Positions 4,043 to 15,044 of a stretch of 15,215 bases of DNA are shown here, piece by piece (the stretch's first letter is position 1; the number at the start of each line of letters is the position of its first letter). Origin of the DNA: a virus. Taxonomy: Duplodnaviria > Heunggongvirae > Uroviricota > Caudoviricetes. The stretch lies in the IMG/VR virus record IMGVR_UViG_2778261570_000007, positions 1 to 15,215 of that record; one strand, given 5' to 3'. A program made the position numbers and the translations under genes. The notes under the pieces are model-generated. The model was given only the letters and a program-made list of their open reading frames with translations, had not been told where the DNA came from and made no database searches.

Positions 4043-5610
4043 ACAGGGAACTGGTGGATCTTCACGGGCAGCCACTGCGGCAGAGTATGGGGTATTCCGG
4101 AGGGGGTACCGGATTTGGCGGGCAGCTTGCGGAATGGTTGCCTGCACCGGAAAGTGCCGACGTGGCGCTCTTACCTTCCATTCAGCTGGGTAACGCCCGT
4201 GCGGATGATCTGGTCCGTAACAACGGTATTGCCGCAAATGCAGTGGAAATTCATAAAGACCATATCGTCGGGCACATGTTTCGTCTGAGCTACCGGCCCA
4301 ACTGGCGCTGGCTGGGGATGTCGGAAGCTGATTCGCATGCCTTTATTGAAGATGTGGAGGCGGCGTGGATGGAATATTGCGATCCGGTGTTTGGTTCGAT
4401 GGATGTGGAAGGGCGTCGCTCGTTTACCGAATTTATTCGTGAAGGGGTGGGGGTCCATACGTTTAACGGTGAAATTTTTGTCCAGCCCGTATGGGATACG
4501 GAATCCACGTCATTATTCAGAACAAAATTCAAGACCATCAGTCCGAAGCGCGTCAGCACGCCCGGTTATGGTACCGGCGATCGTTTTATGCGTGCCGGAG
4601 TGGAAATCAACCGTTACGGAAAGGCGATGGCTTATCATGTTCAGGACGATGACTGGCCTGGTTACGGTGTCAGCAACTGGACACGGATTGCGGCGACGCT
4701 GCCCTCCGGGCGACCGGGAATGATCCATGTGTTTCAGCCGCAGGAGGACGGACAGACGCGCGGGGCCAACCAGTTTTATTCCGTGATGGAGCGCCTCAAG
4801 ATGCTCGACACACTGCAGGCCACGCAACTGCAGTCGGCGGTGGTGCGGGCGATGTATGCCGCGACGATTGAATCCACTCTGGATTCAGAAAAAGCATTTG
4901 AATATATCGCCGGGGTGGGAGATGGCGGTAAAAATCCCCTGAACACCATCATGAAAGGCTACGCGCGTTATTACGCCACCAATACGGTAAAGCTGGGCGG
5001 GGTCCGTATTCCGCATCTTTATCCGGGGGATTCACTGAATCTGCAGACAGCGCAGAATGCAGATAATGGTTTCTCTGAACTGGAAAAGGCGCTGTTACGT
5101 TACATTGCTGCCGGGCTGGGGGTGTCCTATGAACAGCTTTCCCGTGATTATTCACAGGTCAGTTATTCCAGTGCCAGGGCATCCGCCAATGAGTCGTGGC
5201 GGTATTTTATGGGCAAACGAAAATTTGTGGCCAGCCGACTGGCATCACAGATGTTTGCCTGCTGGCTGGAGGAAGCTCTTATTCGCGGTGTGATCCGCCC
5301 GCCGAAATCCCGTTTTTCATTCTGGGAGGCCCGTTCCGGATGGTGTCGTGCCGAGTGGATTGGTGCCGGTCGCATGGCGATTGATGGCCTTAAGGAAGTG
5401 CAGGAGGCGGTGATGCGTATTGAAGGTGGCCTGAGCACGTACGAGAAAGAGCTGGCCCTGATGGGCGATGACTATCAGGAGATTTTCCGCCAGCAACTGC
5501 GTGAAAGCCAGGAGCGACAGGCAGCGGGTCTTCCCCGCCCCATCTGGATAAAGGACACGTTTCAGCAGCAGATCCGACAGACAACGGGAGAAAATGGCGA
5601 TGCGTCGTAA
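4039..5610 (+). CDS. B: Portal protein (lambda gpB family)
   Basis: GTG start overlapping the W stop by 4 nt, as in lambda. Extensive similarity to lambda gpB, for example GNARADDLVRNNG, FNGEIFVQPVWDT, GQTRGANQFYSVMERLKMLDTLQATQLQSA, LRYIAAGLGVSYEQLSR and MAIDGLKEVQEAVMRIEGGLSTYEKE. Confidence 0.92.
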   Translation: MNRELVDLHGQPLRQSMGYSGGGTGFGGQLAEWLPAPESADVALLPSIQLGNARADDLVRNNGIAANAVEIHKDHIVGHMFRLSYRPNWRWLGMSEADSHAFIEDVEAAWMEYCDPVFGSMDVEGRRSFTEFIREGVGVHTFNGEIFVQPVWDTESTSLFRTKFKTISPKRVSTPGYGTGDRFMRAGVEINRYGKAMAYHVQDDDWPGYGVSNWTRIAATLPSGRPGMIHVFQPQEDGQTRGANQFYSVMERLKMLDTLQATQLQSAVVRAMYAATIESTLDSEKAFEYIAGVGDGGKNPLNTIMKGYARYYATNTVKLGGVRIPHLYPGDSLNLQTAQNADNGFSELEKALLRYIAAGLGVSYEQLSRDYSQVSYSSARASANESWRYFMGKRKFVASRLASQMFACWLEEALIRGVIRPPKSRFSFWEARSGWCRAEWIGAGRMAIDGLKEVQEAVMRIEGGLSTYEKELALMGDDYQEIFRQQLRESQERQAAGLPRPIWIKDTFQQQIRQTTGENGDAS

Positions 5611-7216
5611 TTTATCGCATATTGCCGCCATGGCATTTAATGAGCCGCTTTTACTGGAACCCGCCTATGCGCGGGTTTTCTTTTGCGCGCTGGGTAAAGA
5701 GATGGGAGCCGGCAGCCTTGCCGTTCCTCAGCAGGCTGTTCAGCTTGATGCTGATGGTATGCAACTGGCTGTGACTGACTATATGGCGGGCGGTCAGCGT
5801 CCGGCAAAGAGTTACCAGGTGAAGAATGGCATCGCCATTCTTCCGGTGAGCGGCACGCTGGTGCATAAACTGGGTACCCTGCGGCCTTACTCCGGCATGA
5901 CTGGCTATGACGGCCTGACGGCCCGCCTTCAGATGGCGGTGAATGATCCGGATGTGCGCGGCATTTTGCTGGATATCGACAGCCCGGGCGGTCAGGCTGC
6001 CGGGGCGTTTGACTGTGCTGACATGATTTACCGTCTGCGGGAACAGAAGCCCGTGTGGGCGCTGTGTAATGACATGGCCTGTTCAGCCGCCATGTTGCTG
6101 GCGGCAGCCTGTACCCGTCGGCTGGTCACGCAGACGGCAAAAATTGGTTCGATTGGCGTGATGATGGCGCACACCAGTTACGAGAAACAACTGGCACAGG
6201 AAGGGGTGGACATCACGCTGATTTACTCCGGGCAGCATAAGGTTGACGGCAACAGTATTCAGGCATTGCCGGCAGGTGTGCGTGCAGATTTTCAGCGCCG
6301 TATTGATGAGGCCCGCCGGATGTTTGTCGACAAGGTGGCGCTTTATACGGGGCTGAGTTCAGAGGCGGTGATGAATACCGAGGCTGCCGTTTATGACGGT
6401 CAGGCAGGCATTGATGCAGGCCTGGCTGATCAACTGATTAATGCTGCAGATGCCGTTGAAGTGATGGTTTCTGCACTGAATGACTCTGTTACGAAGGAGA
6501 ATACAATGACTGTTAAAAATCTCACCGTTGCTGAAGCGGTGGCCCAGGAAAATCAGCGCGTGATGGGGATCCTGAATTGTCAGGAGGCGAAAGGGCGCGA
6601 GCAACTGGCGCAAATGCTGGCAGGTCAGCCAGGAATGACGGTTGAGCAGGCGAAAACGTTGCTTGCAGCTGCGCCGGTTGCCGGTACTGACAGCACGGGC
6701 GATCAGATTATGGGGCTGCCGGAAGCAAAGGGGCGTGAGCAACTGGCACAGATGCTGGCAGGTCAGCCGGGGATGACGGTGGAGCAGGCGAAAGCGTTTC
6801 TGGCGGCAGCCCCTGCTGCTGGTGCTGCAGGCACAGGCGATCAGATTATGGCGTTACCGGAAGCAAAAGGGCGTGAACAACTCGCGCAGGCGCTGGCTGA
6901 ACAGCCGGGAATGACCGTTGACCAGGCCAAAACGTTACTGGCGGCGGCACCGGTTGCGGGTTCTGCAAGTGTCGGCGATCAGATTATGGCGCTGCCGGAG
7001 GCAAAAGGGCGCGAGCAACTTGCACAGGCACTGACAGAACAACCGGGAATGACGGTGGCGCAGGCGAAAACGCTGCTGGCAGCCGCGCCGGCGGCATCGC
7101 AACCGTCACAGGAAACACTTTTTGATCGCTTTATGGCACAGCATGCTGCCAGTGCGGTTTCCGGTGGCGGAACTGCCGGGCGCGGGGAGGAAGACCTGCT
7201 GATGAGTATGCCGTAA
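5594..7216 (+). CDS. C: Capsid maturation protease (S49/ClpP-like, lambda gpC family) with an expanded C-terminal scaffold domain
   Basis: Overlaps B by 17 nt. The N-terminus HIAAMAFNEPLLLEPAYARVFFCAL matches lambda C (HIASMAFNEPLMLEPAYARVFFCAL). Protease-core motifs include PYSGMTGY, ILLDIDSPGG, VWALCNDMACSAA and RRLVTQTAKIGSIGVMMAH. At 540 aa it is about 100 aa longer than lambda C because of internal tandem repeats. Confidence 0.9.
   Translation: MAMRRNLSHIAAMAFNEPLLLEPAYARVFFCALGKEMGAGSLAVPQQAVQLDADGMQLAVTDYMAGGQRPAKSYQVKNGIAILPVSGTLVHKLGTLRPYSGMTGYDGLTARLQMAVNDPDVRGILLDIDSPGGQAAGAFDCADMIYRLREQKPVWALCNDMACSAAMLLAAACTRRLVTQTAKIGSIGVMMAHTSYEKQLAQEGVDITLIYSGQHKVDGNSIQALPAGVRADFQRRIDEARRMFVDKVALYTGLSSEAVMNTEAAVYDGQAGIDAGLADQLINAADAVEVMVSALNDSVTKENTMTVKNLTVAEAVAQENQRVMGILNCQEAKGREQLAQMLAGQPGMTVEQAKTLLAAAPVAGTDSTGDQIMGLPEAKGREQLAQMLAGQPGMTVEQAKAFLAAAPAAGAAGTGDQIMALPEAKGREQLAQALAEQPGMTVDQAKTLLAAAPVAGSASVGDQIMALPEAKGREQLAQALTEQPGMTVAQAKTLLAAAPAASQPSQETLFDRFMAQHAASAVSGGGTAGRGEEDLLMSMP
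6506..7216 (+). CDS. nu3: Putative Nu3-like scaffolding protein from an internal in-frame start within C
   Basis: A strong SD aaggaga (6494-6500) precedes an in-frame ATG at 6506 (MTVKNLTVAEAVAQENQRVMGILNC...). In lambda, Nu3 is nested in-frame in the 3' part of C. Internal initiation here is inferred, not demonstrated. Confidence 0.5.
   Translation: MTVKNLTVAEAVAQENQRVMGILNCQEAKGREQLAQMLAGQPGMTVEQAKTLLAAAPVAGTDSTGDQIMGLPEAKGREQLAQMLAGQPGMTVEQAKAFLAAAPAAGAAGTGDQIMALPEAKGREQLAQALAEQPGMTVDQAKTLLAAAPVAGSASVGDQIMALPEAKGREQLAQALTEQPGMTVAQAKTLLAAAPAASQPSQETLFDRFMAQHAASAVSGGGTAGRGEEDLLMSMP
6584..7135 (+). repeat. In-frame tandem repeat, four copies of 138 bp (46 aa), inside the C/Nu3 coding region
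   Basis: Unit starts at 6584, 6722, 6860 and 6998 (period exactly 138 nt). Each encodes about EAKGREQLAQMLAGQPGMTVEQAKTLLAAAPVAG-x6-GDQIMALP. Copies differ by point substitutions and the last copy diverges at its 3' end. Confidence 0.85.
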
Positions 7217-7254: not shown

Positions 7255-7590
7255 ATGATTAAAACCACCACGGAAAAGCGTGCAGATGTGCGCATTTTTG
7301 CCGGAAGCGATCCGGCGCATACCGCAACAGCCACCAGTGGTATCAGTGCTGCCACACCTGCACTGACGCCACTGATGGTGGATGACGCCACCGGAAAACT
7401 GGTTGTCTGGGATGGTCAGAAAGCCGGAACGGCTGTGGGTGTGCTGGCTCTGGCGCTTGCCGGGACCGAGCCCATGCTGACGTACTACAAAAGCGGTACG
7501 TTTGCCACTGAGTCGCTGGTCTGGCCTGGTTCGGTGGATGCGGTGAAAAAAGCCAACGCATTTGTGGGAAGTGCCATCAGCCACGCCTGA
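7255..7590 (+). CDS. D: Head decoration protein (lambda gpD family)
   Basis: 111 aa with a caggagg SD. [38 protein letters not shown]...[15 protein letters not shown]...AFVGSAIS parallels lambda gpD ([27 protein letters not shown]...KLVAWDG...FYKSGTF...AFAGTAIS). Confidence 0.9.
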   Translation: [111 protein letters not shown]

Positions 7591-7612
7591 TGGTGAAGTG
7601 ATTAACTGAAAA

Positions 7613-7642
7613 AACGGGTCGCGATGCGGCCCGTTTGTGTTT
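7613..7642 (+). terminator. Stem-loop with U-rich tail between D and E (candidate partial terminator or mRNA-stabilising hairpin)
   Basis: aacgggtcgc (7613-7622), loop gat, gcggcccgtt (7626-7635): a 10-bp stem including one G-U pair, followed by tgtgttt. It lies 18-47 nt upstream of the E start. Confidence 0.4.
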
Positions 7643-7659: not shown

Positions 7660-8688
7660 ATGGGGTTATTTACCACGCGTCAGTTACTCGGGTACACCGA
7701 GCAGAAAGTGAAATTTCGTGCGCTGTTTCTGGAGCTGTTCTTTCGTCGCACGATCACTTTCCATACTCAGGAAGTCATGCTGGATAAAATTACCGGCAAA
7801 ACACCGGTTGCAGCGTATGTGTCTCCGGTGGTGTCAGGCAAAGTGCTGCGCAGCCGTGGTGGTGAAACCCGTGTGTTACGTCCCGGTTATGTAAAACCAA
7901 AACACCGCTTTGATTATCAGCAGGCAGTGGAACGTCTTCCGGGAGAAGATCCGGCCCGCCTTAATGACCCGGCTTACCGCCGTCTGCGTATTCTGACGGA
8001 CAACCTGAAACAGGAAGAGCAGGCGATTGTGCAGGTGGAAGAAATGCAGGCAGTCAGTGCTGTTCTGCAGGGTAAATACACTATGAGCGGCGAGCAGTTT
8101 GAGACGGTGGAAGTGGATTTTGGGCGTTCTGCCGCCAATAACATTACGCAGGCTGGCGGACGCGAATGGTCAAAGCAGAATGCTGACACCTTTGATCCGA
8201 CGCATGATCTTGATGCGTACTGCGATTTTGCTTCCGGTACCATCAATATCGCGATTATGGACGGCACGGTCTGGCGTATGCTGAACGGTTTTAAACTGTT
8301 CCGTGAAAAACTGGATACCCGCCGTGGCTCCAAATCTGAGCTGGAAACCGCACTGAAAGACCTGGGGTCCGTGGTTTCCTTTAAGGGCTGGTACGGCGAT
8401 CTGGCTGTCGTGGTGGCGAAGACAACGTATGTTGACGAAAACGGGGATGAACAGCGTTATCTGCCGGAAGGCACACTGATTCTGGGAAATACCCAGGCGG
8501 AAGGCGTCCGTTGCTATGGCGCAATCCAGGATAATCAGGCGCTGAGTGAAGGGATCACCTCTGCGATTCGTTATCCGAAACACTGGGAGGAAGTGGGGGA
8601 TCCTGGTTGCGAATATACCATGACGCAGTCTGCGCCGTTGATGGTGCTGCCGGATCCGGATGCGTTTGTGGTGGTTCAGGTGAAATAA
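7660..8688 (+). CDS. E: Major capsid protein (lambda gpE family)
   Basis: 342 aa (lambda E is 341). Extensive colinear similarity: YVSPVVSGKVLRSRGG, PGYVKPKH, EDPARLNDPAYRRLRI, AIVQVEEMQAVSAVLQGKYTMSGEQF, NNITQAGGREWSK, KLDTRRGSKSELETALKDLG, LGNTQAEG and TMTQSAPLMVLPDPDAFVVVQ. Confidence 0.93.
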   Translation: MGLFTTRQLLGYTEQKVKFRALFLELFFRRTITFHTQEVMLDKITGKTPVAAYVSPVVSGKVLRSRGGETRVLRPGYVKPKHRFDYQQAVERLPGEDPARLNDPAYRRLRILTDNLKQEEQAIVQVEEMQAVSAVLQGKYTMSGEQFETVEVDFGRSAANNITQAGGREWSKQNADTFDPTHDLDAYCDFASGTINIAIMDGTVWRMLNGFKLFREKLDTRRGSKSELETALKDLGSVVSFKGWYGDLAVVVAKTTYVDENGDEQRYLPEGTLILGNTQAEGVRCYGAIQDNQALSEGITSAIRYPKHWEEVGDPGCEYTMTQSAPLMVLPDPDAFVVVQVK

Positions 8689-10211: not shown

Positions 10212-10774
10212 TGGAGCCATTGATGATGGGAGCCTGGCATCAGGCGGTGATTGACAGTCTGAAACAAATTCCCTGGGTGGAAGATGCCGATGAGTACCCG
10301 GAAAAAGTGACGCAACTGGTGACGCCTGCCGTGTTTGTGGATGTGCCCGGCTGGGACAAGGCTCAGTTTGCCGACGGGCAGACGCGGGTCACGCTGAAAT
10401 GCGATCTGTTTGTGGTGACTGACCGGGCCGGGAAGACGGAGAACGTGCCAAAACCGCAGATATTTGCCCGCTGTCTGGCAATGGATTTATCTGACTGGAT
10501 TGATGGAGCCACGTTCGGGCTGGATAACGTTTACCCGGCTGTTTTTATCGATGCTGAGGTGGATACCTTCGACCGGCTGCTGGACGACTACATCGTTTTC
10601 CGTGTCTCTTTCGAACAGGACATTCCGGTCGGCGAAGATCCGTTTGCAGTTCAGGCAGGTGCGCCGTTACAGGAAGTCTGGCTGGGTAAAGTACCGGAAA
10701 CCGGTAAAAAGCATGTGCAGGATTATCGTCTTATCTGGAAAGCGGAGGGCACCGGCGATGAGTCTGGCGGATGA
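10211..10774 (+). CDS. Putative tail terminator / tail-completion protein, possibly lambda gpU-like, with a C-terminal extension
   Basis: Lies after the Z-like gene, where lambda has U. AVIDSLKQ...PAVFVDVPG...TRVTLKCDLFVV loosely parallels lambda U (AAVLDALEK...PAVAVYLTG...ELHIEVFL). The start overlaps the upstream stop (GTG 10208 / ATG 10211). At 187 aa it is longer than lambda U (131 aa). Confidence 0.45.
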   Translation: MEPLMMGAWHQAVIDSLKQIPWVEDADEYPEKVTQLVTPAVFVDVPGWDKAQFADGQTRVTLKCDLFVVTDRAGKTENVPKPQIFARCLAMDLSDWIDGATFGLDNVYPAVFIDAEVDTFDRLLDDYIVFRVSFEQDIPVGEDPFAVQAGAPLQEVWLGKVPETGKKHVQDYRLIWKAEGTGDESGG

Positions 10775-11381
10775 AGTGGCTGAGTTACGCCGCAGGGTGG
10801 CGGACATGGTCCGTCGCGGCGTGGTGGAAGTGGTGATCCCGGGTAGCCCGGTGATGGTCCGGGTGGATATCGGAGATGTGCTTTCGCCGCCGTTGCCCTG
10901 GATTCAGGTGCAGTCCGGGCGTTACATGCAGGTCAGTAATTACCCGGCACCAGGAGATGCGGTCACGGTGATATCGGAGGCAGGTGATCTGCGTAATGGT
11001 CGGGTGTATCCGGGGGCCAACATTGACGCGATTCCGGTACCGGCGGGCAGTGAACACGAGCATGTTATTTTGTTTGATACCGGAACGGAGATCCGTTACG
11101 ACCGCAAGGCTAATGCCCTGTCCATCACGCTGGCTGAAGGCGGCAGCTATAAAATCACCGGCAGGGGAATGCTTGACGGTCCGGTGGAAATCACGGATAC
11201 CCTGACTGTGCAGGGAAAAACGAAGATTAATGCCGATACGCAGGTTCTGGGCAATATCGGTGCCTCACAGGAGATCACCGACAAAACCGGTAGCATGAGT
11301 AAAATTCGCGAAATTTATAATACTCATGATCACCCTGGCGACAGCGGGGGAACCACCCGTAAACCTAACCAGGAAATGTGA
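10758..11381 (+). CDS. V: Baseplate assembly / spike protein (P2 gpV family)
   Basis: ATG at 10758 with a ggaggg SD, overlapping the upstream stop by 17 nt. The N-terminus MSLADEVAELRRRVADMVRRGVV parallels P2 V (NIQELARALRNMIRTGII). The C-terminal NTHDHPGDSGGTT matches the P2 V motif HTHKHPGDSGGTT. The tracked ORF 10464..11381 contains this frame. Confidence 0.85.
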   Translation: MSLADEVAELRRRVADMVRRGVVEVVIPGSPVMVRVDIGDVLSPPLPWIQVQSGRYMQVSNYPAPGDAVTVISEAGDLRNGRVYPGANIDAIPVPAGSEHEHVILFDTGTEIRYDRKANALSITLAEGGSYKITGRGMLDGPVEITDTLTVQGKTKINADTQVLGNIGASQEITDKTGSMSKIREIYNTHDHPGDSGGTTRKPNQEM

Positions 11382-11402
11382 ACGCCGCACCGGCGTTTTT
11401 TT
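11382..11402 (+). terminator. Terminator-like hairpin with T-run between V and W (candidate attenuator)
   Basis: acgccg (11382-11387), loop cac, cggcgt (11391-11396), followed by a 7-T run (11396-11402). The next gene starts at 11415 without an obvious SD. Confidence 0.4.
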
Positions 11403-11414
11403 CGGAAAAATTTC

Positions 11415-11771
11415 ATGATTGGTATTGATTCCGCCACTGGCAGATATCTGCACGGTAACGAACATCTGCGTCAGTCCGTCACCGATATTTTATCAACACC
11501 GGTCGGCAGCCGGGTACTTCTCAGGGAATACGGCAGCAGGTTGTTCAGTCTGCTTGATAACCCGCAGGATGATTTTACGCGGGTGAGGATTGTCCGTGAA
11601 ACGGCAACCGCCCTTGAACGCTGGGAGCCCCGCCTGACCCTCCGGCGGGTGGAGGTGACGTGGACAGGAGAAGGAAGCGCCTGGCTGACGCTTGTCGGGG
11701 TGAACAACGAAACACAGGAAACGATTCGACTCGAGGAGATAAAAATTGGCAGCATCTCAGGCCATTATTGA
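11415..11771 (+). CDS. W: Baseplate wedge protein (P2 gpW / T4 gp25-like family)
   Basis: 118 aa. SVTDILSTPVGSRVLLREYGSRLFSLLDNPQ...ALERWEPRLTL parallels P2 W (SIGDILRTPVGSRVMRRDYGSLLASMIDQPQ...KWEPRVTL). Confidence 0.85.
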   Translation: MIGIDSATGRYLHGNEHLRQSVTDILSTPVGSRVLLREYGSRLFSLLDNPQDDFTRVRIVRETATALERWEPRLTLRRVEVTWTGEGSAWLTLVGVNNETQETIRLEEIKIGSISGHY

Positions 11772-12660
11772 TCTGTCCGCGATACCTGTACCGGATGCGG
11801 TGGAGGTGCCGGACACCGCTGTACTGGTCACTCAGATAGTGGCGAAATATCAGGAACTGGACACGTTGTTTTCGGCCCTGGTGGAATCTGATCCCGCGTA
11901 TAAATGGGCAGAGGCGCTGGCTTTTCGGGTGGCGCTGATGCGCCAGCAGATAAATGATGCTGTCCGTGCTGTACTGCTTGCCAGTGCCGGTGGGAGCGAT
12001 CTGGATCAGGTTGGCGCGAATTATCAGGTTCAGCGGCTGGTCATTACCCCGGCAGACGACAGCACCATTCCGCCCACGCCGGCGGTGTATGAACATGATG
12101 ACGCTTTTCGCGAACGTATCCAGTTGTCGTGGGCACGGCTCAGCACCGCCGGCGCGAAAAATGCGTATCACTATTTTGCACAAAGTGCTGATCCTGATGT
12201 GCTGGATGTGAAGGCTTACGGGCCGGAAACGCATTCGCAGGAAGGTCGGGTTTTTCTTTATGTGTTATCCCGCTCCGGAAATGGCACTGCACCACAACCC
12301 CTGCTGGATAAGGTGGCAGCATCAGTCAGTGATGATGAAACCCGTCCCCTGACGGATTTTGTCAGTGTCCGGACGGCAGAAATTATTCCCTACGATGTGG
12401 TGGCGGATATTCATATTCCCTACGGACTGGATGGTGAACTGGTTATGTCAAATGCCCGCAAGGCGCTGCAGTCATACACTGACAGCGTCCACCGGATTGG
12501 CTCGGTGGCATCCCGTTCCGGCATGGATGGTGCCCTTCACCAGACCGGGGTGATTACGGTGAATCTGACCTCTCCGGGCAGTGATATCGTTCCTGCGATG
12601 GGGCAGGCACCGTGGTGCCGTAAGGTAACGCTGAATAAGGTGGAGACAACTGATGAATGA
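11746..12660 (+). CDS. J: Baseplate assembly protein (P2 gpJ family)
   Basis: TTG start at 11746 preceded by a gaggag SD (11733-11738). IIDLSAIPVPDAV, LDQVGANYQVQRLVITPADDSTIPPTPAV and a C-terminal ...TTDE parallel P2 J (IIDLNQLPAPDVV, LDVIGANYNTTRLTITPADDSTIPPTPAV, ...GGSDE). Confidence 0.88.
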   Translation: MAASQAIIDLSAIPVPDAVEVPDTAVLVTQIVAKYQELDTLFSALVESDPAYKWAEALAFRVALMRQQINDAVRAVLLASAGGSDLDQVGANYQVQRLVITPADDSTIPPTPAVYEHDDAFRERIQLSWARLSTAGAKNAYHYFAQSADPDVLDVKAYGPETHSQEGRVFLYVLSRSGNGTAPQPLLDKVAASVSDDETRPLTDFVSVRTAEIIPYDVVADIHIPYGLDGELVMSNARKALQSYTDSVHRIGSVASRSGMDGALHQTGVITVNLTSPGSDIVPAMGQAPWCRKVTLNKVETTDE

Positions 12661-13243
12661 CGATATCAGGAGCATACTGCCGGTCAGTGCCAGCCGGGCA
12701 GAGCGGGTGGTGGACTGTGTCTCCGGAGATATGCTGTCAGACATAGCGGTCTGCCTGATCCGCTATGTGAAAAATCCCGATTTATGCCCTGCTGAATTGC
12801 TGCCATGGCTGGCCTGGGAAATGGCGGTGGATACCTGGAATGAACACTGGACGGAGACGGAAAAAAGGTCTGCGATAAAACGTGCTGCTTACATCCACCG
12901 ACACAGAGGGACTAAAGCGGCGCTGATGGCATCGCTGGCTGACAGTCCCTTCCGGTCGCAGATTGTTGAGTGGTATGAGCAGACCCCGCCCGGGGAGCCG
13001 TATACCTTTCGTCTGAACGTGGAACAGAAGGATTTACCGGTGCTGATGAATGATCATCAGGATCTTAAGCATGCGGTGCTCCGTGCCAAAAATCTGCGCA
13101 GCTGGTTCAGTATTCACGTTTACGGGAACAGCACAGGGCGTGGATTTGGTTACGGCTATGTGATGGCGACAGAAAAAATCAGAAGTACTGGTGTGACAAC
13201 AAAGACAGTGCCCACAGGCGGGCAGAGTGAGGCAGGTGTATGA
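12653..13243 (+). CDS. I: Baseplate / tail protein (P2 gpI family)
   Basis: NPDLCPAELLPWLAWEMAVDTWNEHWTETEKRSAIKRAAYIHRHRGTKAAL...EWYEQTPPGEPYTFRL parallels P2 I (NPDTCPANLLPWLAWAFSVDRWDEKWPEATKRAVIRDAYFIHCHKGTIGAV...EWWENSDPPGTFRL). Overlaps J by 8 nt. Confidence 0.85.
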   Translation: MNDDIRSILPVSASRAERVVDCVSGDMLSDIAVCLIRYVKNPDLCPAELLPWLAWEMAVDTWNEHWTETEKRSAIKRAAYIHRHRGTKAALMASLADSPFRSQIVEWYEQTPPGEPYTFRLNVEQKDLPVLMNDHQDLKHAVLRAKNLRSWFSIHVYGNSTGRGFGYGYVMATEKIRSTGVTTKTVPTGGQSEAGV

Positions 13244-14499
13244 ATGGACTGATTCTGACAACGTCCGGCGCTGCAGAAATTGAAGCAGCATATCAGAACG
13301 GGCAAACCGTGACCGTCCGGCATGTTCTGCTTGGTGACGGGGGCGGGCGGGCATTGCCATCCACGCCGGATGAAATGGCAGCAATGACATCGTTGTACGG
13401 CGAATTCGGGCAGGAACCCTTTTCCGACGGTGCGATGGAGGAGGGCTTCATCAGCGGGGATATTGTGATTGACTGTAAATCATACCCCGGTAAAACCCTT
13501 CGTGAACTGGGGATGATCAGCGACAGAGGTACGCTTATCGCGTACGGACGTTATCCCGACACCTTTTTACCAGACCAGACGGACTCCGTTATCAAGGAAG
13601 TTATTCTGACGCTGGTTCTTGGGCTGACGCACGCACAAAACGTGGTGCTGGAAGTTGATCCGGACAGGGCCATTATTACTCAGGAAATCGGAGACAGACG
13701 CTATCTGCAACGAAAAAAGAATCTTTCGGATGTGGAAGACAAGGATGAGGCTGTTGAAAACCTCGGATTAAAACCCACGGTGGACAAGGCAAAAAATGCC
13801 GTTCAGCGTGATGGTGACACCATGACCGGGGAGCTGAAAATCCGTGGTGTTAATGCGCTGAGGATTTTCAACGAAGCCTTTGGCCTGATTTTTCGTCGTT
13901 CGGAAGAGTGCCTGCACCTTATTCCAACACAGGAAAACCAGGGTGAAAATGGCGATATTGGTCCACTTCGCCCGTTCACTATTAATCTGCGGACGGGTGA
14001 AATATCCATGTCGCATAAAGTGTCTGTTGGTGGCGGTTCTCAGGTGAATGGTGCGCTGGGTATCGGCGTTCAGAATGCCCTGGGCGGAAACTCAATTGCT
14101 TTCGGGGATAACGATACCGGCCTGAAACAGAATGGTGATGGCCTGCTGGATGTTTATGCCAATGGTCAGCACGTATTCCGTTTTCAGAATGGCGCGTTAC
14201 AAAGTAACCGGGCGGTGAACGTTACTGGGCGGGTAACACCGTCAGACTACGGAAACTTTGATGCCCGTTACCAGACCAAAACAGGCGGCGTGCAGGATGT
14301 GCGTTATGGTTCCGAAATGTATTACAACCCGGGAGGTAACGAGATAACCTGGACGTTTCGCTCACCTTCAGGCCACGGATTATCCGGTATTTATGTGCAG
14401 GATACCGGAAGAAGTTCGGCAGATAACATTGGTGGTGTGTATTACAGACCGCTTCAGAAACTGATTAACGGCACCTGGTATAACGTGGCGAGTGTTTAA
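13240..14499 (+). CDS. H: Tail fibre protein (P2 gpH family), short form
   Basis: The N-terminus (TTSGAAEIEAA...VTVRHVLLGDGGG) and the C-terminal region (KAKNAVQRDGDTMTGEL; NALGGNSIAFGDNDTGLKQNGDGLLDVYANGQHVFRFQNG; GNFDARY; YRPLQKLINGTWYNVASV) parallel P2 H (NAVQKNGDTLSGGL; NALGGSSIVLGDNDTGFKQNGDGILDVYANSQRVFRFQNG; FRPIQKYINGTWYNVAQV). At 419 aa it is much shorter than P2 H as I recall it. Confidence 0.85.
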   Translation: MNGLILTTSGAAEIEAAYQNGQTVTVRHVLLGDGGGRALPSTPDEMAAMTSLYGEFGQEPFSDGAMEEGFISGDIVIDCKSYPGKTLRELGMISDRGTLIAYGRYPDTFLPDQTDSVIKEVILTLVLGLTHAQNVVLEVDPDRAIITQEIGDRRYLQRKKNLSDVEDKDEAVENLGLKPTVDKAKNAVQRDGDTMTGELKIRGVNALRIFNEAFGLIFRRSEECLHLIPTQENQGENGDIGPLRPFTINLRTGEISMSHKVSVGGGSQVNGALGIGVQNALGGNSIAFGDNDTGLKQNGDGLLDVYANGQHVFRFQNGALQSNRAVNVTGRVTPSDYGNFDARYQTKTGGVQDVRYGSEMYYNPGGNEITWTFRSPSGHGLSGIYVQDTGRSSADNIGGVYYRPLQKLINGTWYNVASV

Positions 14500-14501
14500 C
14501 A

Positions 14502-15044
14502 ATGTTGCATTTAAAAAATATTACTGCAGGCAATCCGAAAACCGCAGAACAATATCAGATGACAAAACAACATGGTATCACCTGGCTTTTTTCGGAAGAT
14601 GACAAAAACTGGTATGAAGAACAGAAGAACTTTGCCAGTGACACCATAAAAATGGTTTACACCGGAGACGGGCGCGTGGTGTGGGTCGGTAAGGATGTGA
14701 CAGGCATTGAACCCCGTAACGCCAGTGTTATTGAAGTTCCTGATATTACCGCTAATCGCCGTATTACCGTGCCTGGTTACTGGTTTTACCGCAACGATAA
14801 ATTTGTCTTCGACTACAAACTAAAAGCGGAAGATGAGCGCGATGCTCTGTTAAAACAGGTCAGCATCATGACCAGCGAATGGGAAAAAGACCTGCTGCTG
14901 GGATTAATCAGTGACGAAGACAGGGGGAAGCTGAAAGCGTACCGCATTTACGCGAAATCGCTGCAGGCGATGGATTTCAGCGCTATTACGGATAAGCCCA
15001 CTTACAACAATATTAGCTGGCCTGAACAGCCACAAAATACCTGA
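14502..15044 (+). CDS. G: Tail fibre assembly chaperone (P2 gpG / Tfa family)
   Basis: MLHLKNITAGNPKTAEQYQMTK...WLFSEDDKNWYEEQKNFASDTIKMVY...VIEVPDITANRR parallels P2 G ([22 protein letters not shown]...[26 protein letters not shown]...VVEVPDITSNRR). Starts 3 nt after the H stop. Confidence 0.88.
   Translation: MLHLKNITAGNPKTAEQYQMTKQHGITWLFSEDDKNWYEEQKNFASDTIKMVYTGDGRVVWVGKDVTGIEPRNASVIEVPDITANRRITVPGYWFYRNDKFVFDYKLKAEDERDALLKQVSIMTSEWEKDLLLGLISDEDRGKLKAYRIYAKSLQAMDFSAITDKPTYNNISWPEQPQNT

Follow-up and report, generated by a model that had tools for sequence, protein, structure and literature searches.

The nested arrangement of a head maturation protease and its scaffold is already known from phage lambda and phage 21, and the locus described here is an unannotated member of this group. 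In lambda (genes C/Nu3) as well as in N15 and phi80 (gene 5/gene 6), the gene of an S49 protease contains an in-frame Shine-Dalgarno (SD) sequence and ATG at the boundary between the protease and the scaffold. For gene 6, the N15 and phi80 records read 'internal in-frame translational start within gene 5', and the Gifsy-1 record refers to the phage 21 entry 'GP5 [Contains: Scaffold protein GP6'. The nested products of lambda, N15, and phi80 are 131-137 aa long and carry one module (ENxRIMGILNCEEAxGRE...PGMTV...ILAAAP) and a tail after a long Thr/Ala/Ser-rich spacer, while the 200-aa product of phage 21 contains three tandem modules of approximately 46 aa, named 'Tri boxes', and then a homologous tail. 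Lambda Nu3 is listed as essential (PMC10695390), and Nu3-C, Nu3-E, and Nu3-Nu3 interactions have been listed as well (PMC3224144). A full-text literature search, partly aimed at phage 21, found nothing on gene 5/6 of this phage.

Two further systems are alike in organization. The herpesvirus UL26/UL26.5 pair combines a minor protease-scaffold fusion with an abundant in-frame nested scaffold, and the C-terminus that UL26.5 has in common with UL26 binds the capsid protein. However, the UL26.5 scaffold is produced from its own promoter and mRNA rather than from an internal RBS, and there is no sequence relationship with the phage proteins. In both lambda and herpesvirus assembly, the scaffold is far more numerous than the protease. 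In phage P2, gpO holds the protease and the scaffold in one reading frame as a single polypeptide, and we know of no separately initiated scaffold protein made by P2.

The DNA analysed here is a stretch of 15,215 nucleotides (the window), and gene C and its parts described below are located on its + strand. The head module in the window is of the phage-21/lambda type. The genes of the head operon are arranged in the order terminase gpA, lambda-family portal, C, HDPD (gpD), and Phage_cap_E. The RefSeq annotation of an identical E. coli prophage agrees with this lambda-type order, and phage 21 (M81255, OL657228) shows a like succession of portal, 5/6, shp/D, and major capsid. The tail genes differ, as this prophage carries a P2-like contractile-tail module, unlike the lambdoid tail.

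Gene C (5600-7216) was assigned by Pfam, RefSeq, and identity to phage 21 as a head maturation protease/scaffold fusion gene, the homologue of gpC and phage 21 gp5 (61% amino acid identity to the latter). The Pfam family PF01343 Peptidase_S49 matches C above the cut-off (E = 1.7e-33), and its best stretch, residues 148-292 of the 540-aa ORF, places the S49 (SppA/ClpP-like) peptidase domain at 6035-6469. The peptidase part also matches TIGR00706 SppA_dom (E = 4e-31), and C matches PHROG 53 'head maturation protease' (E = 7e-143). Its start is most likely ATG 5600 rather than ATG 5594, which would make C 538 aa long (56 kDa), and 11 nt are shared between this start and the portal gene's last codons (stop codon at 5608-5610). 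ATG 5600 is conserved in close relatives and is also the start given by RefSeq, whereas ATG 5594 is missing from all ten close relatives that are readable at that stretch. In the identical E. coli prophage, RefSeq/PGAP describes 5600-7216 as 'S49 family peptidase' with the full-length product only. The C gene (5594-7216 of the window) has 100% identity to that of E. coli E9 (NZ_CP104500).

The first-pass annotation had placed a second, nested gene with a strong ribosome-binding signal inside C. The signals that it named can be read straight from the sequence: AAGGAGA is found at 6494-6500, and the ATG at 6506-6508 is in frame with the long ORF (6506-5594 = 912 = 304 codons) and followed by 236 codons up to the stop codon at 7214-7216, in agreement with the product of 236 aa proposed at the time. 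The SD-ATG spacing of 5 nt given there is correct when counted from the extra A of AAGGAGA; the canonical SD match is AAGGAG (6494-6499), which forms Lys-Glu codons of C and leaves a 6-nt spacer, AATACA, before ATG 6506. This ATG aligns with the annotated internal start and RBS of phage 21 gene 6, where the SD is GGAGG, encoded as Gly-Gly, with a spacer of 4 nt. The annotated gene 6 starts of N15 and phi80 lie at the same junction.

The predicted pairing between the SD at 6494 and the 16S 3' tail amounts to -8.8 kcal/mol. Among the 16 gene starts that were scored, only four pair more strongly (D, -10.3; W, -9.3; 13240, -9.0; 11746, -8.9), while the starts of C (-7.4), B (-7.0), and E (-5.7) are weaker. 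Within 6300-6720, ATG 6506 is the top in-frame start candidate, with a runner-up at -6.9, and by its anti-SD score it ranks 3rd among 101 internal in-frame ATGs and 13th among 355 + strand ATGs of the window. Judged within the window alone, such an SD-ATG is an approximately 3-4% event, which is suggestive but not proof, and two ATGs inside the portal gene (5413 and 4369) have anti-SD scores equal to or better than that of ATG 6506. The internal RBS and the first nested codons are covered by an AT-rich trough (6480-6529), with 30-37% GC in 30-nt composition windows compared with 58% GC for the whole gene.

A regulatory RNA structure around the RBS was rejected, as the stability of the local fold is not above that of shuffled sequences (z = -0.8); the start codon is unpaired. 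The MFE fold does allow a weak 4-bp hairpin between GGAG of the SD and a CUCU upstream of it, which counts against a nested start. An internal promoter for the nested ORF was also rejected, with two matches against a shuffle expectation of 1.0 +/- 1.2, and the locus differs in this respect from herpesvirus UL26.5. One weak sigma-70-like match is located at 6480-6507, and its -10 element overlaps ATG 6506.

The nested ORF (6506-7216) would encode a protein of 236 aa with a mass of 24.0 kDa, a pI of 4.7, and 21% Ala, beginning with (M)TVKNLTVAEAV, a homologue of Nu3 and gp6. Two PHROG families match it, each in four stretches: 'head scaffolding protein' (PHROG 8399, E = 9.5e-52) and 'capsid assembly protein' (PHROG 8940, E = 1.2e-43). 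The nested part aligns with phage 21 gp5/gp6 over its whole length in BLASTP and with lambda at 48-49% identity over residues 5-88 in tblastn, and a search of NCBIfam returned no model for the scaffold part. As noted earlier, the ATG lies just ahead of a repeat region, with the first module about 14 codons downstream, and the protein does consist largely of repeats (4 x 46 = 184 of 236 aa). The tandem array spans 6583-7091 according to TRF, and the protein register of the modules spans 6560-7111. Module 1 (6560-6697), VMGILNCQEAKGREQLAQMLAGQPGMTVEQAKTLLAAAPVAGTDST, is the positional orthologue of the single lambda Nu3 module and of phage 21 Tri1. It is followed by module 2 (6698-6835), which has 72-78% nucleotide identity to the adjacent units, module 3 (6836-6973), and module 4 (6974-7111), all of 46 aa. 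The non-repeated C-terminal tail (7112-7213), ETLFDRFMAQHAASAVSGGGTAGRGEEDLLMSMP, is common to C and the nested product, and alignment identifies the phage 21 gp6 and lambda Nu3 tails as its homologues. The modules and the tail are found here as in phage 21, lambda, N15, and phi80, and the difference lies in number and spacing: four modules in 236 aa, and almost no spacer in comparison with the latter three phages. Collectively, the alignment to phage 21 gene 6, the match to PHROG 8399, and the SD and ATG found throughout the relatives (see below) support the Nu3-like scaffold proposed at first, and 6506-7216 is very probably a nested in-frame prohead scaffold gene inside C (5600-7216), equivalent to lambda Nu3 and phage 21 gp6.

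The AF2 model of the whole nested protein has low global confidence (pLDDT 64.8, pTM 0.23). The helical modules reach 70-82 and the linkers stay below 50, and a helix is predicted at nested residues 202-217, within the tail; a single module modeled alone has a pLDDT of only 58.8. The low-confidence model appears compatible with a flexible scaffold and is not a measurement of one. Going by the title of a 2011 study by Medina et al., lambda gpNu3 is reportedly a flexible, largely disordered scaffold. A resemblance of the module to helix-hairpin-helix (HhH) domains was considered, but neither sequence nor fold gave a significant match to HhH families. Pfam gave T2SSK and HU N-terminal matches in which no stretch passes alone, Foldseek against the PDB found nothing at E < 1 (the best hits, RuvA, RecR, and ERCC1, are at E > 1), and a PDB sequence profile search found nothing below E = 0.1, only designed tandem-repeat proteins at E > 0.1.

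The comparison with relatives, rather than the site alone, decides for the putative nested start. The protease/scaffold junction was compared by an anchored search instead of strict column-by-column mapping, because indels in the linker defeated the latter. All 119 related loci whose 3' part is complete have an SD-like motif and an ATG at the junction, in 23 nucleotide variants, and these loci are not independent, as many of them are near-identical phage-21-type or lambda-type sequences. The linker peptide surrounding the junction is poorly conserved. The SD itself is encoded via at least five peptide contexts and different codon phases: GGxM (GGAGG), GVxM (AGGAG), [KQ]E[ND]xM (AAGGAG/CAGGAG), and KEDKM and SEDKNM (GAGGA). 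One more SD variant and peptide context was seen in locus L151, which was found after the 119 loci had been counted. The persistence of the SD through these varied peptide contexts points to selection on the RNA signal and not on the protein. In other assemblies, gene callers independently start proteins at the homologous Met, among them six that begin with MPELT/MPQLT. As for the stand-alone homologues in Bradyrhizobium, their downstream neighbour, a candidate capsid protein of 297 aa, has no PHROG match.

These data bear on an alternative in which full-length C is the sole translation product, its C-terminal domain acts as a scaffold in cis or after self-cleavage, as modeled on P2 gpO, and the SD-ATG is incidental. 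It is true that the scaffold modules belong to the C reading frame, that RefSeq gives a single product, and that strong SD-ATG pairs arise by chance inside the portal gene too. However, these chance sites are not kept in the relatives. The SD-ATG 4369, just as strong and inside the portal gene, has disappeared from most of them, and the 5413 site is kept only as the conserved peptide EVQE[AS]VM, where free GAA/GAG wobble weakens the SD. The SD and ATG at the junction, in contrast, are retained in every relative via differing codons and peptides while the linker varies, and the site at 6506 coincides with the AT-rich trough. Furthermore, the scaffold would be required in far greater numbers than the protease, and a single weakly initiated fusion would be insufficient for this. 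We therefore consider translation of full-length C alone to be improbable, and the conserved internal SD-ATG, set against the organization of P2, argues for a second product.

A nested scaffold starting from another in-frame codon, either ATG 6371 (281 aa) or the equivalent of lambda 5132, is very improbable. ATG 6371 has a moderate SD (-6.9 in anti-SD pairing), and lambda-type records do put the Nu3 start further upstream, inconsistently at 201 aa (NC_001416, HK629) or 233 aa (OM418625). On the other hand, ATG 6506 has the best SD in 6300-6720 and is the sole in-frame candidate conserved family-wide, and an upstream start would take in part of the folded peptidase domain. In lambda itself, there is almost no SD at 5132 (-2.7) compared with -10.8 at 5342, and the alignment shows Ile in place of the 5132 Met in the window, phage 21, N15, and phi80. 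The RefSeq start of lambda Nu3 (5132) is not equivalent to 6506, and the lambda counterpart of our site is the SD-ATG at 5342. The family comparison thus fixes the conserved lambda start at 5342 (131 aa) and not at 5132, which is useful given the discordant public records. With regard to the likeness to lambda C/Nu3 in the first-pass annotation, the nested in-frame scaffold stands, on the grounds of homology and the conserved SD-ATG, but phage 21 with its gene 5/6 pair offers the nearest precedent, and the Nu3 start of RefSeq does not match the site.

A further reading denies AAGGAG any role in initiation and takes it for a Lys-Glu dicodon, fortuitous or protein-driven, or for an SD-like pause site inside the gene, between two domains. 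This is just as hard to credit. Although the SD sits at the domain boundary and SD-like hexamers of about equal strength occur in 3 of 101 internal ATG contexts, pausing would not require an ATG 4-7 nt further on, yet this ATG never varies, and relatives have Gly-Gly, Gly-Val, Gln-Glu, or Ser-Glu-Asp in place of Lys-Glu but retain the purine-rich SD core.

For the favored nested scaffold gene at ATG 6506, the signals, homology, and conservation described above can be combined with what is known of lambda and with general knowledge, from which we infer how initiation, product ratio, co-assembly, and degradation may proceed. Translation of the late polycistronic mRNA would begin at two sites. 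Initiation at ATG 5600, overlapping the portal end, would yield the 538-aa protease-scaffold fusion, and independent initiation at ATG 6506, behind AAGGAG in an AT-rich unstructured stretch, would yield the 236-aa protein, which has the same sequence as the C-terminal 44% of C. Since the C-terminal modules and the tail are common to the two products, the protease would enter the procapsid by the scaffold's own contacts, and once incorporated it would degrade the scaffold from inside. By analogy with lambda, the scaffold would be needed for procapsids to form and would be absent from the mature head. The scaffold may be viewed as a string of four helix-loop-helix modules of approximately 46 aa on flexible Ala/Gly/Pro-rich linkers.

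The only unusual point of the predicted nested scaffold is its four 46-residue modules, the number of which varies between relatives, with 1, 2, 3, 4, or 5 copies. Four modules are kept in 98 of the 106 complete E. coli genomes with this type, down to 87% nucleotide identity. The array shows gain, loss, and homogenisation of units: three units of locus L076 are 100% identical, and the internal units of L150 and L151 are 96% identical. The nucleotide identity from module to module is 64-78% here versus 51-59% in phage 21. Tentatively, the module number may be functional and tunable, setting the capsid-/portal-binding sites or the protease-cleavable linkers per chain and being adjusted by unequal recombination in the 138-nt array, an idea that we regard as possible but rather unlikely.

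In conclusion, the finding is mainly an annotation matter. In about 100 complete E. coli genomes, RefSeq gives the gene no name other than 'S49 family peptidase', and because of this label an essential head-assembly protein, the probable scaffold, is absent from their gene lists. A 'beads-on-a-string' scaffold of several modules would represent an unstudied variant of procapsid assembly of the lambda type, and the natural series of one to five modules is suited to testing the effects of scaffold valence or length on this assembly.

Inside C, the S49 head protease gene, the first-pass annotation had placed a Shine-Dalgarno (SD) sequence, AAGGAGA, at 6494–6500 and a start codon at 6506–6508, and both are read in the sequence as described. 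The ATG at 6506 lies in the frame of C and opens 236 codons up to the stop at 7214–7216, as had also been proposed. The 16 nt upstream of it pair with the 16S 3' tail at a predicted −8.8 kcal/mol, which exceeds the values for the starts of C, of the portal gene B and of the major capsid gene E. Stronger pairing is predicted for just four of 16 scored gene starts, namely those of the decoration gene D, the head-tail joining gene W and the ORFs at 13240 and 11746. By the same score, the site comes third among the 101 ATGs that are internal and in frame, and 13th when all 355 ATGs of the strand are counted, so that, judged by the window alone, it stands only weakly above chance. Within 6300–6720, 6506 is the top in-frame start candidate, and it sits inside a sharp AT-rich trough (30–37% GC, with 58% for the gene); its candidate status and the trough favour real initiation at this position. 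Fold prediction leaves the start codon unpaired, with no significant local RNA structure around it.

Two in-frame ATGs of the portal gene, at 5413 and 4369, served as controls, and their pairing values (−10.3 and −9.3 kcal/mol) equal or exceed that of 6506. The ATG at 4369 is not conserved: most relatives have Ser, Lys, Thr, Tyr or another codon in its place. At 5413, only the peptide EVQE[AS]VM is kept; GAA and GAG interchange freely within it, which weakens the SD, and this site therefore looks protein-driven.

Conservation of the 6506 site follows a different pattern. Related loci were drawn from one-genome-per-species contigs (60) and from IMG/VR (80), and the junction was searched between the GLAD motif, which closes the peptidase domain, and the first scaffold module (ENxR[IV]MGIL). 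All 119 loci whose 3' part is complete carry an ATG with an upstream SD-like core there, and 23 different nucleotide versions of it occur. The core is GGAGG, read as Gly-Gly, in phage 21, lambda, N15, phi80 and Gifsy-1, and AGGAG, read as Gly-Val, in some relatives. In the clade of the window it is AAGGAG or CAGGAG(G), encoding Lys/Gln-Glu one codon further upstream; Providencia has AAGGAAAGAGGA (Lys-Glu-Asp) and E. coli A34 has GAGGA (Ser-Glu-Asp). The junction peptide is otherwise the least conserved stretch of the protein in the alignment. Since the SD is kept through varying codons in a poorly conserved peptide, the RNA signal appears to be what is conserved. Gene callers on other assemblies have independently started proteins at the homologous Met (P0007, P0012, P0013, P0016, P0019 and P0024).

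The alignment also connects 6506 with annotated genes. The gp5 of phage 21 is 61% identical to the long ORF of C, and Met 6506 aligns with the start Met of phage 21 gene 6. In both records of that phage, gene 6 is annotated as a nested CDS and is given a ribosome-binding site of its own; three 'Tri boxes' are marked within it in the older one. In N15 and phi80, gene 6 is annotated at the equivalent junction, with an 'internal in-frame translational start within gene 5'. The closest precedent is phage 21 gene 5/6, followed by lambda C/Nu3 and gene 5/6 of N15 and phi80.

For lambda itself, the start of Nu3 differs among public lambda-type records. NC_001416 and HK629 place it at 5132 (201 aa), and OM418625 uses a GTG (233 aa). 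The family-conserved SD-ATG corresponds to lambda 5342 (L003, the NC_001416 locus, position 1043), with AGGAGG and a product of 131 aa by homology. Its pairing value is −10.8 kcal/mol, against −2.7 kcal/mol for 5132, which is nearly without an SD. Of the lambda-type Nu3 starts, only 5342 is conserved across the family; the Met at 5132 is replaced by Ile in the window, phage 21, N15 and phi80. PHROG 8399 has a length of 131 positions. UniProt presumably assigns Nu3 to residues 309–439 of C, which would agree with a 131-aa product.

The window contains a head operon of the lambda/phage 21 type by gene and domain calls: the terminase large subunit gene (GpA_ATPase and GpA_nuclease domains), a small head-tail joining gene, a lambda-family portal gene, C (5594/5600–7216, Peptidase_S49), a gpD-type decoration gene (7255–7590) and a gpE-type major capsid gene (7660–8688). 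In the ORF list C begins at ATG 5594, a codon missing in the ten close relatives readable over 5594–5610, which carry AAAAAGGCGATG or AAAAAGTCGATG where the window has AAAATGGCGATG. ATG 5600 is the conserved start and the RefSeq choice. Several complete genomes, among them the chromosome of E. coli strain E9, hold a 100% identical copy of the C gene (query 5594–7216); there it starts at the ATG equivalent to 5600 and bears the sole annotation 'S49 family peptidase'. In the identical prophage, RefSeq starts the terminase large subunit at 1913 (SD −7.7 kcal/mol); its longest ORF would begin at ATG 1871, which lacks an SD (−0.1 kcal/mol). The RefSeq start of the portal gene is 4087, where the longest ORF would begin at GTG 4039. 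Between D and E, a terminator-like hairpin, AAACGGGTCGCGATGCGGCCCGTTT, with a T-containing tail occupies 7612–7636 on the plus strand; in N15 and HK629 this intergenic position carries the annotation of a putative rho-independent terminator, and the hairpin might act in read-through attenuation or in stabilisation of the upstream mRNA. The prophage is a mosaic: downstream of its lambda/21-type head genes lies a P2-like set for a contractile tail (about 10758–15044 and beyond, from L147), annotated by RefSeq in the identical prophage, in order, as baseplate V, GPW/gp25, baseplate J-like, tail protein I, tail-collar fibre, fibre assembly and tail sheath.

The sequence of C shows a first in-frame start and a second one whose SD is strong, conserved and accessible; the C-terminal region is common to both products. 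The start at 5600 has a weaker, distant SD and overlaps the portal gene by 11 nt (portal stop codon 5608–5610), which suggests that translation of C may be coupled to that of the portal gene. By analogy with lambda and general knowledge of capsid assembly, initiation at 5600 would yield small amounts of a protease-scaffold fusion, probably through this coupling, and initiation at 6506 would yield abundant free scaffold. Both proteins would enter the procapsid via their shared modules and tail, and the protease would next degrade the scaffold. No internal promoter for the nested ORF was found beyond chance, and none is needed in this scheme.

The nested protein (236 aa, 24.0 kDa, pI 4.7, 21% Ala) does consist largely of tandem repeats, as first suggested: a 14-residue leader, four 46-aa modules (6560–6697, 6698–6835, 6836–6973 and 6974–7111) and a 34-aa tail. 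The approximate module consensus is xDQIMALPEAKGREQLAQxLAxQPGMTVxQAKTLLAAAP, followed by a Gly/Ala/Thr/Ser linker. PHROG 8399 ('head scaffolding protein') and 8940 ('capsid assembly protein') match the product in four separate stretches. AlphaFold2, run with an 18-sequence alignment, predicts helices in each module (pLDDT 70–82) and linkers below 50 (pTM 0.23), a model of beads on a string; one module folded alone gives a low-confidence helix-loop-helix. Lambda gpNu3 is reportedly intrinsically disordered, going by the title of a 2011 paper by Medina et al., and the predicted fold is compatible with this description. No solved structure matched the nested product by sequence or fold. The second half of the module (LAxQPGMTVEQAKTLLAAAP; 6614–6670 and equivalents) resembles the helix-hairpin-helix pattern LxxhPGIGxxxAxxIh; this identity is not established, the Pfam T2SSK and HU N-terminus matches being sub-threshold and the Foldseek matches to RuvA, RecR and ERCC1 non-significant.

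The number of modules varies across the family. One module is found in lambda, N15, phi80 and most enterobacterial relatives (nested product 120–140 aa), two in the IMG/VR contigs L080 and L081 (144 aa), three in phage 21, Gifsy-1 and Providencia types (191–200 aa), four in the window's clade (236 aa), and five in L076 and the complete genome STEC313 and, from matching BLAST rows, probably in STEC308 and STEC307 (282 aa). This type of C gene is carried by 106 of 5,426 complete E. coli genomes, 98 of which give a full-length colinear match, that is, four modules, at nucleotide identities down to 87%. Among close relatives (the window at 6560–7111, L076, L080, L081, L150 and L151), the 138-nt array has 2 to 5 units. 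Units of the window are 64–78% identical to each other, and internal units reach 96–100% in other lineages (three units 100% identical to one another in L076, and 96% identity in L150 and L151). Unlike these homogenised internal units, the first and last units behave as positional orthologues across lineages. The pattern is that which would be expected of unequal recombination within the array. The units of phage 21 and Gifsy-1 have diverged (46–59% identity) and are old. Bradyrhizobium encodes two-module homologues of 163–223 aa in a stand-alone gene not nested in a protease (P0081, P0088, P0098, P0101, P0102, P0105, P0109; L153 4001–4594, JBEPRB010000004.1). A 297-aa gene lacking annotation and a tape-measure gene follow directly downstream. 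The module is therefore an older scaffold unit that is portable.

All defining features of the nested protease-scaffold arrangement that can be read from sequence were found in the window. The proposed likeness to lambda C/Nu3 is supported by the alignment to annotated nested genes and by the conserved SD-ATG in all 119 loci, and a separate scaffold protein is very probably initiated at 6506. The gene would be a currently unannotated example of a well-known nested-gene type, in which only the four-module scaffold and the polymorphism of one to five modules are modestly new.
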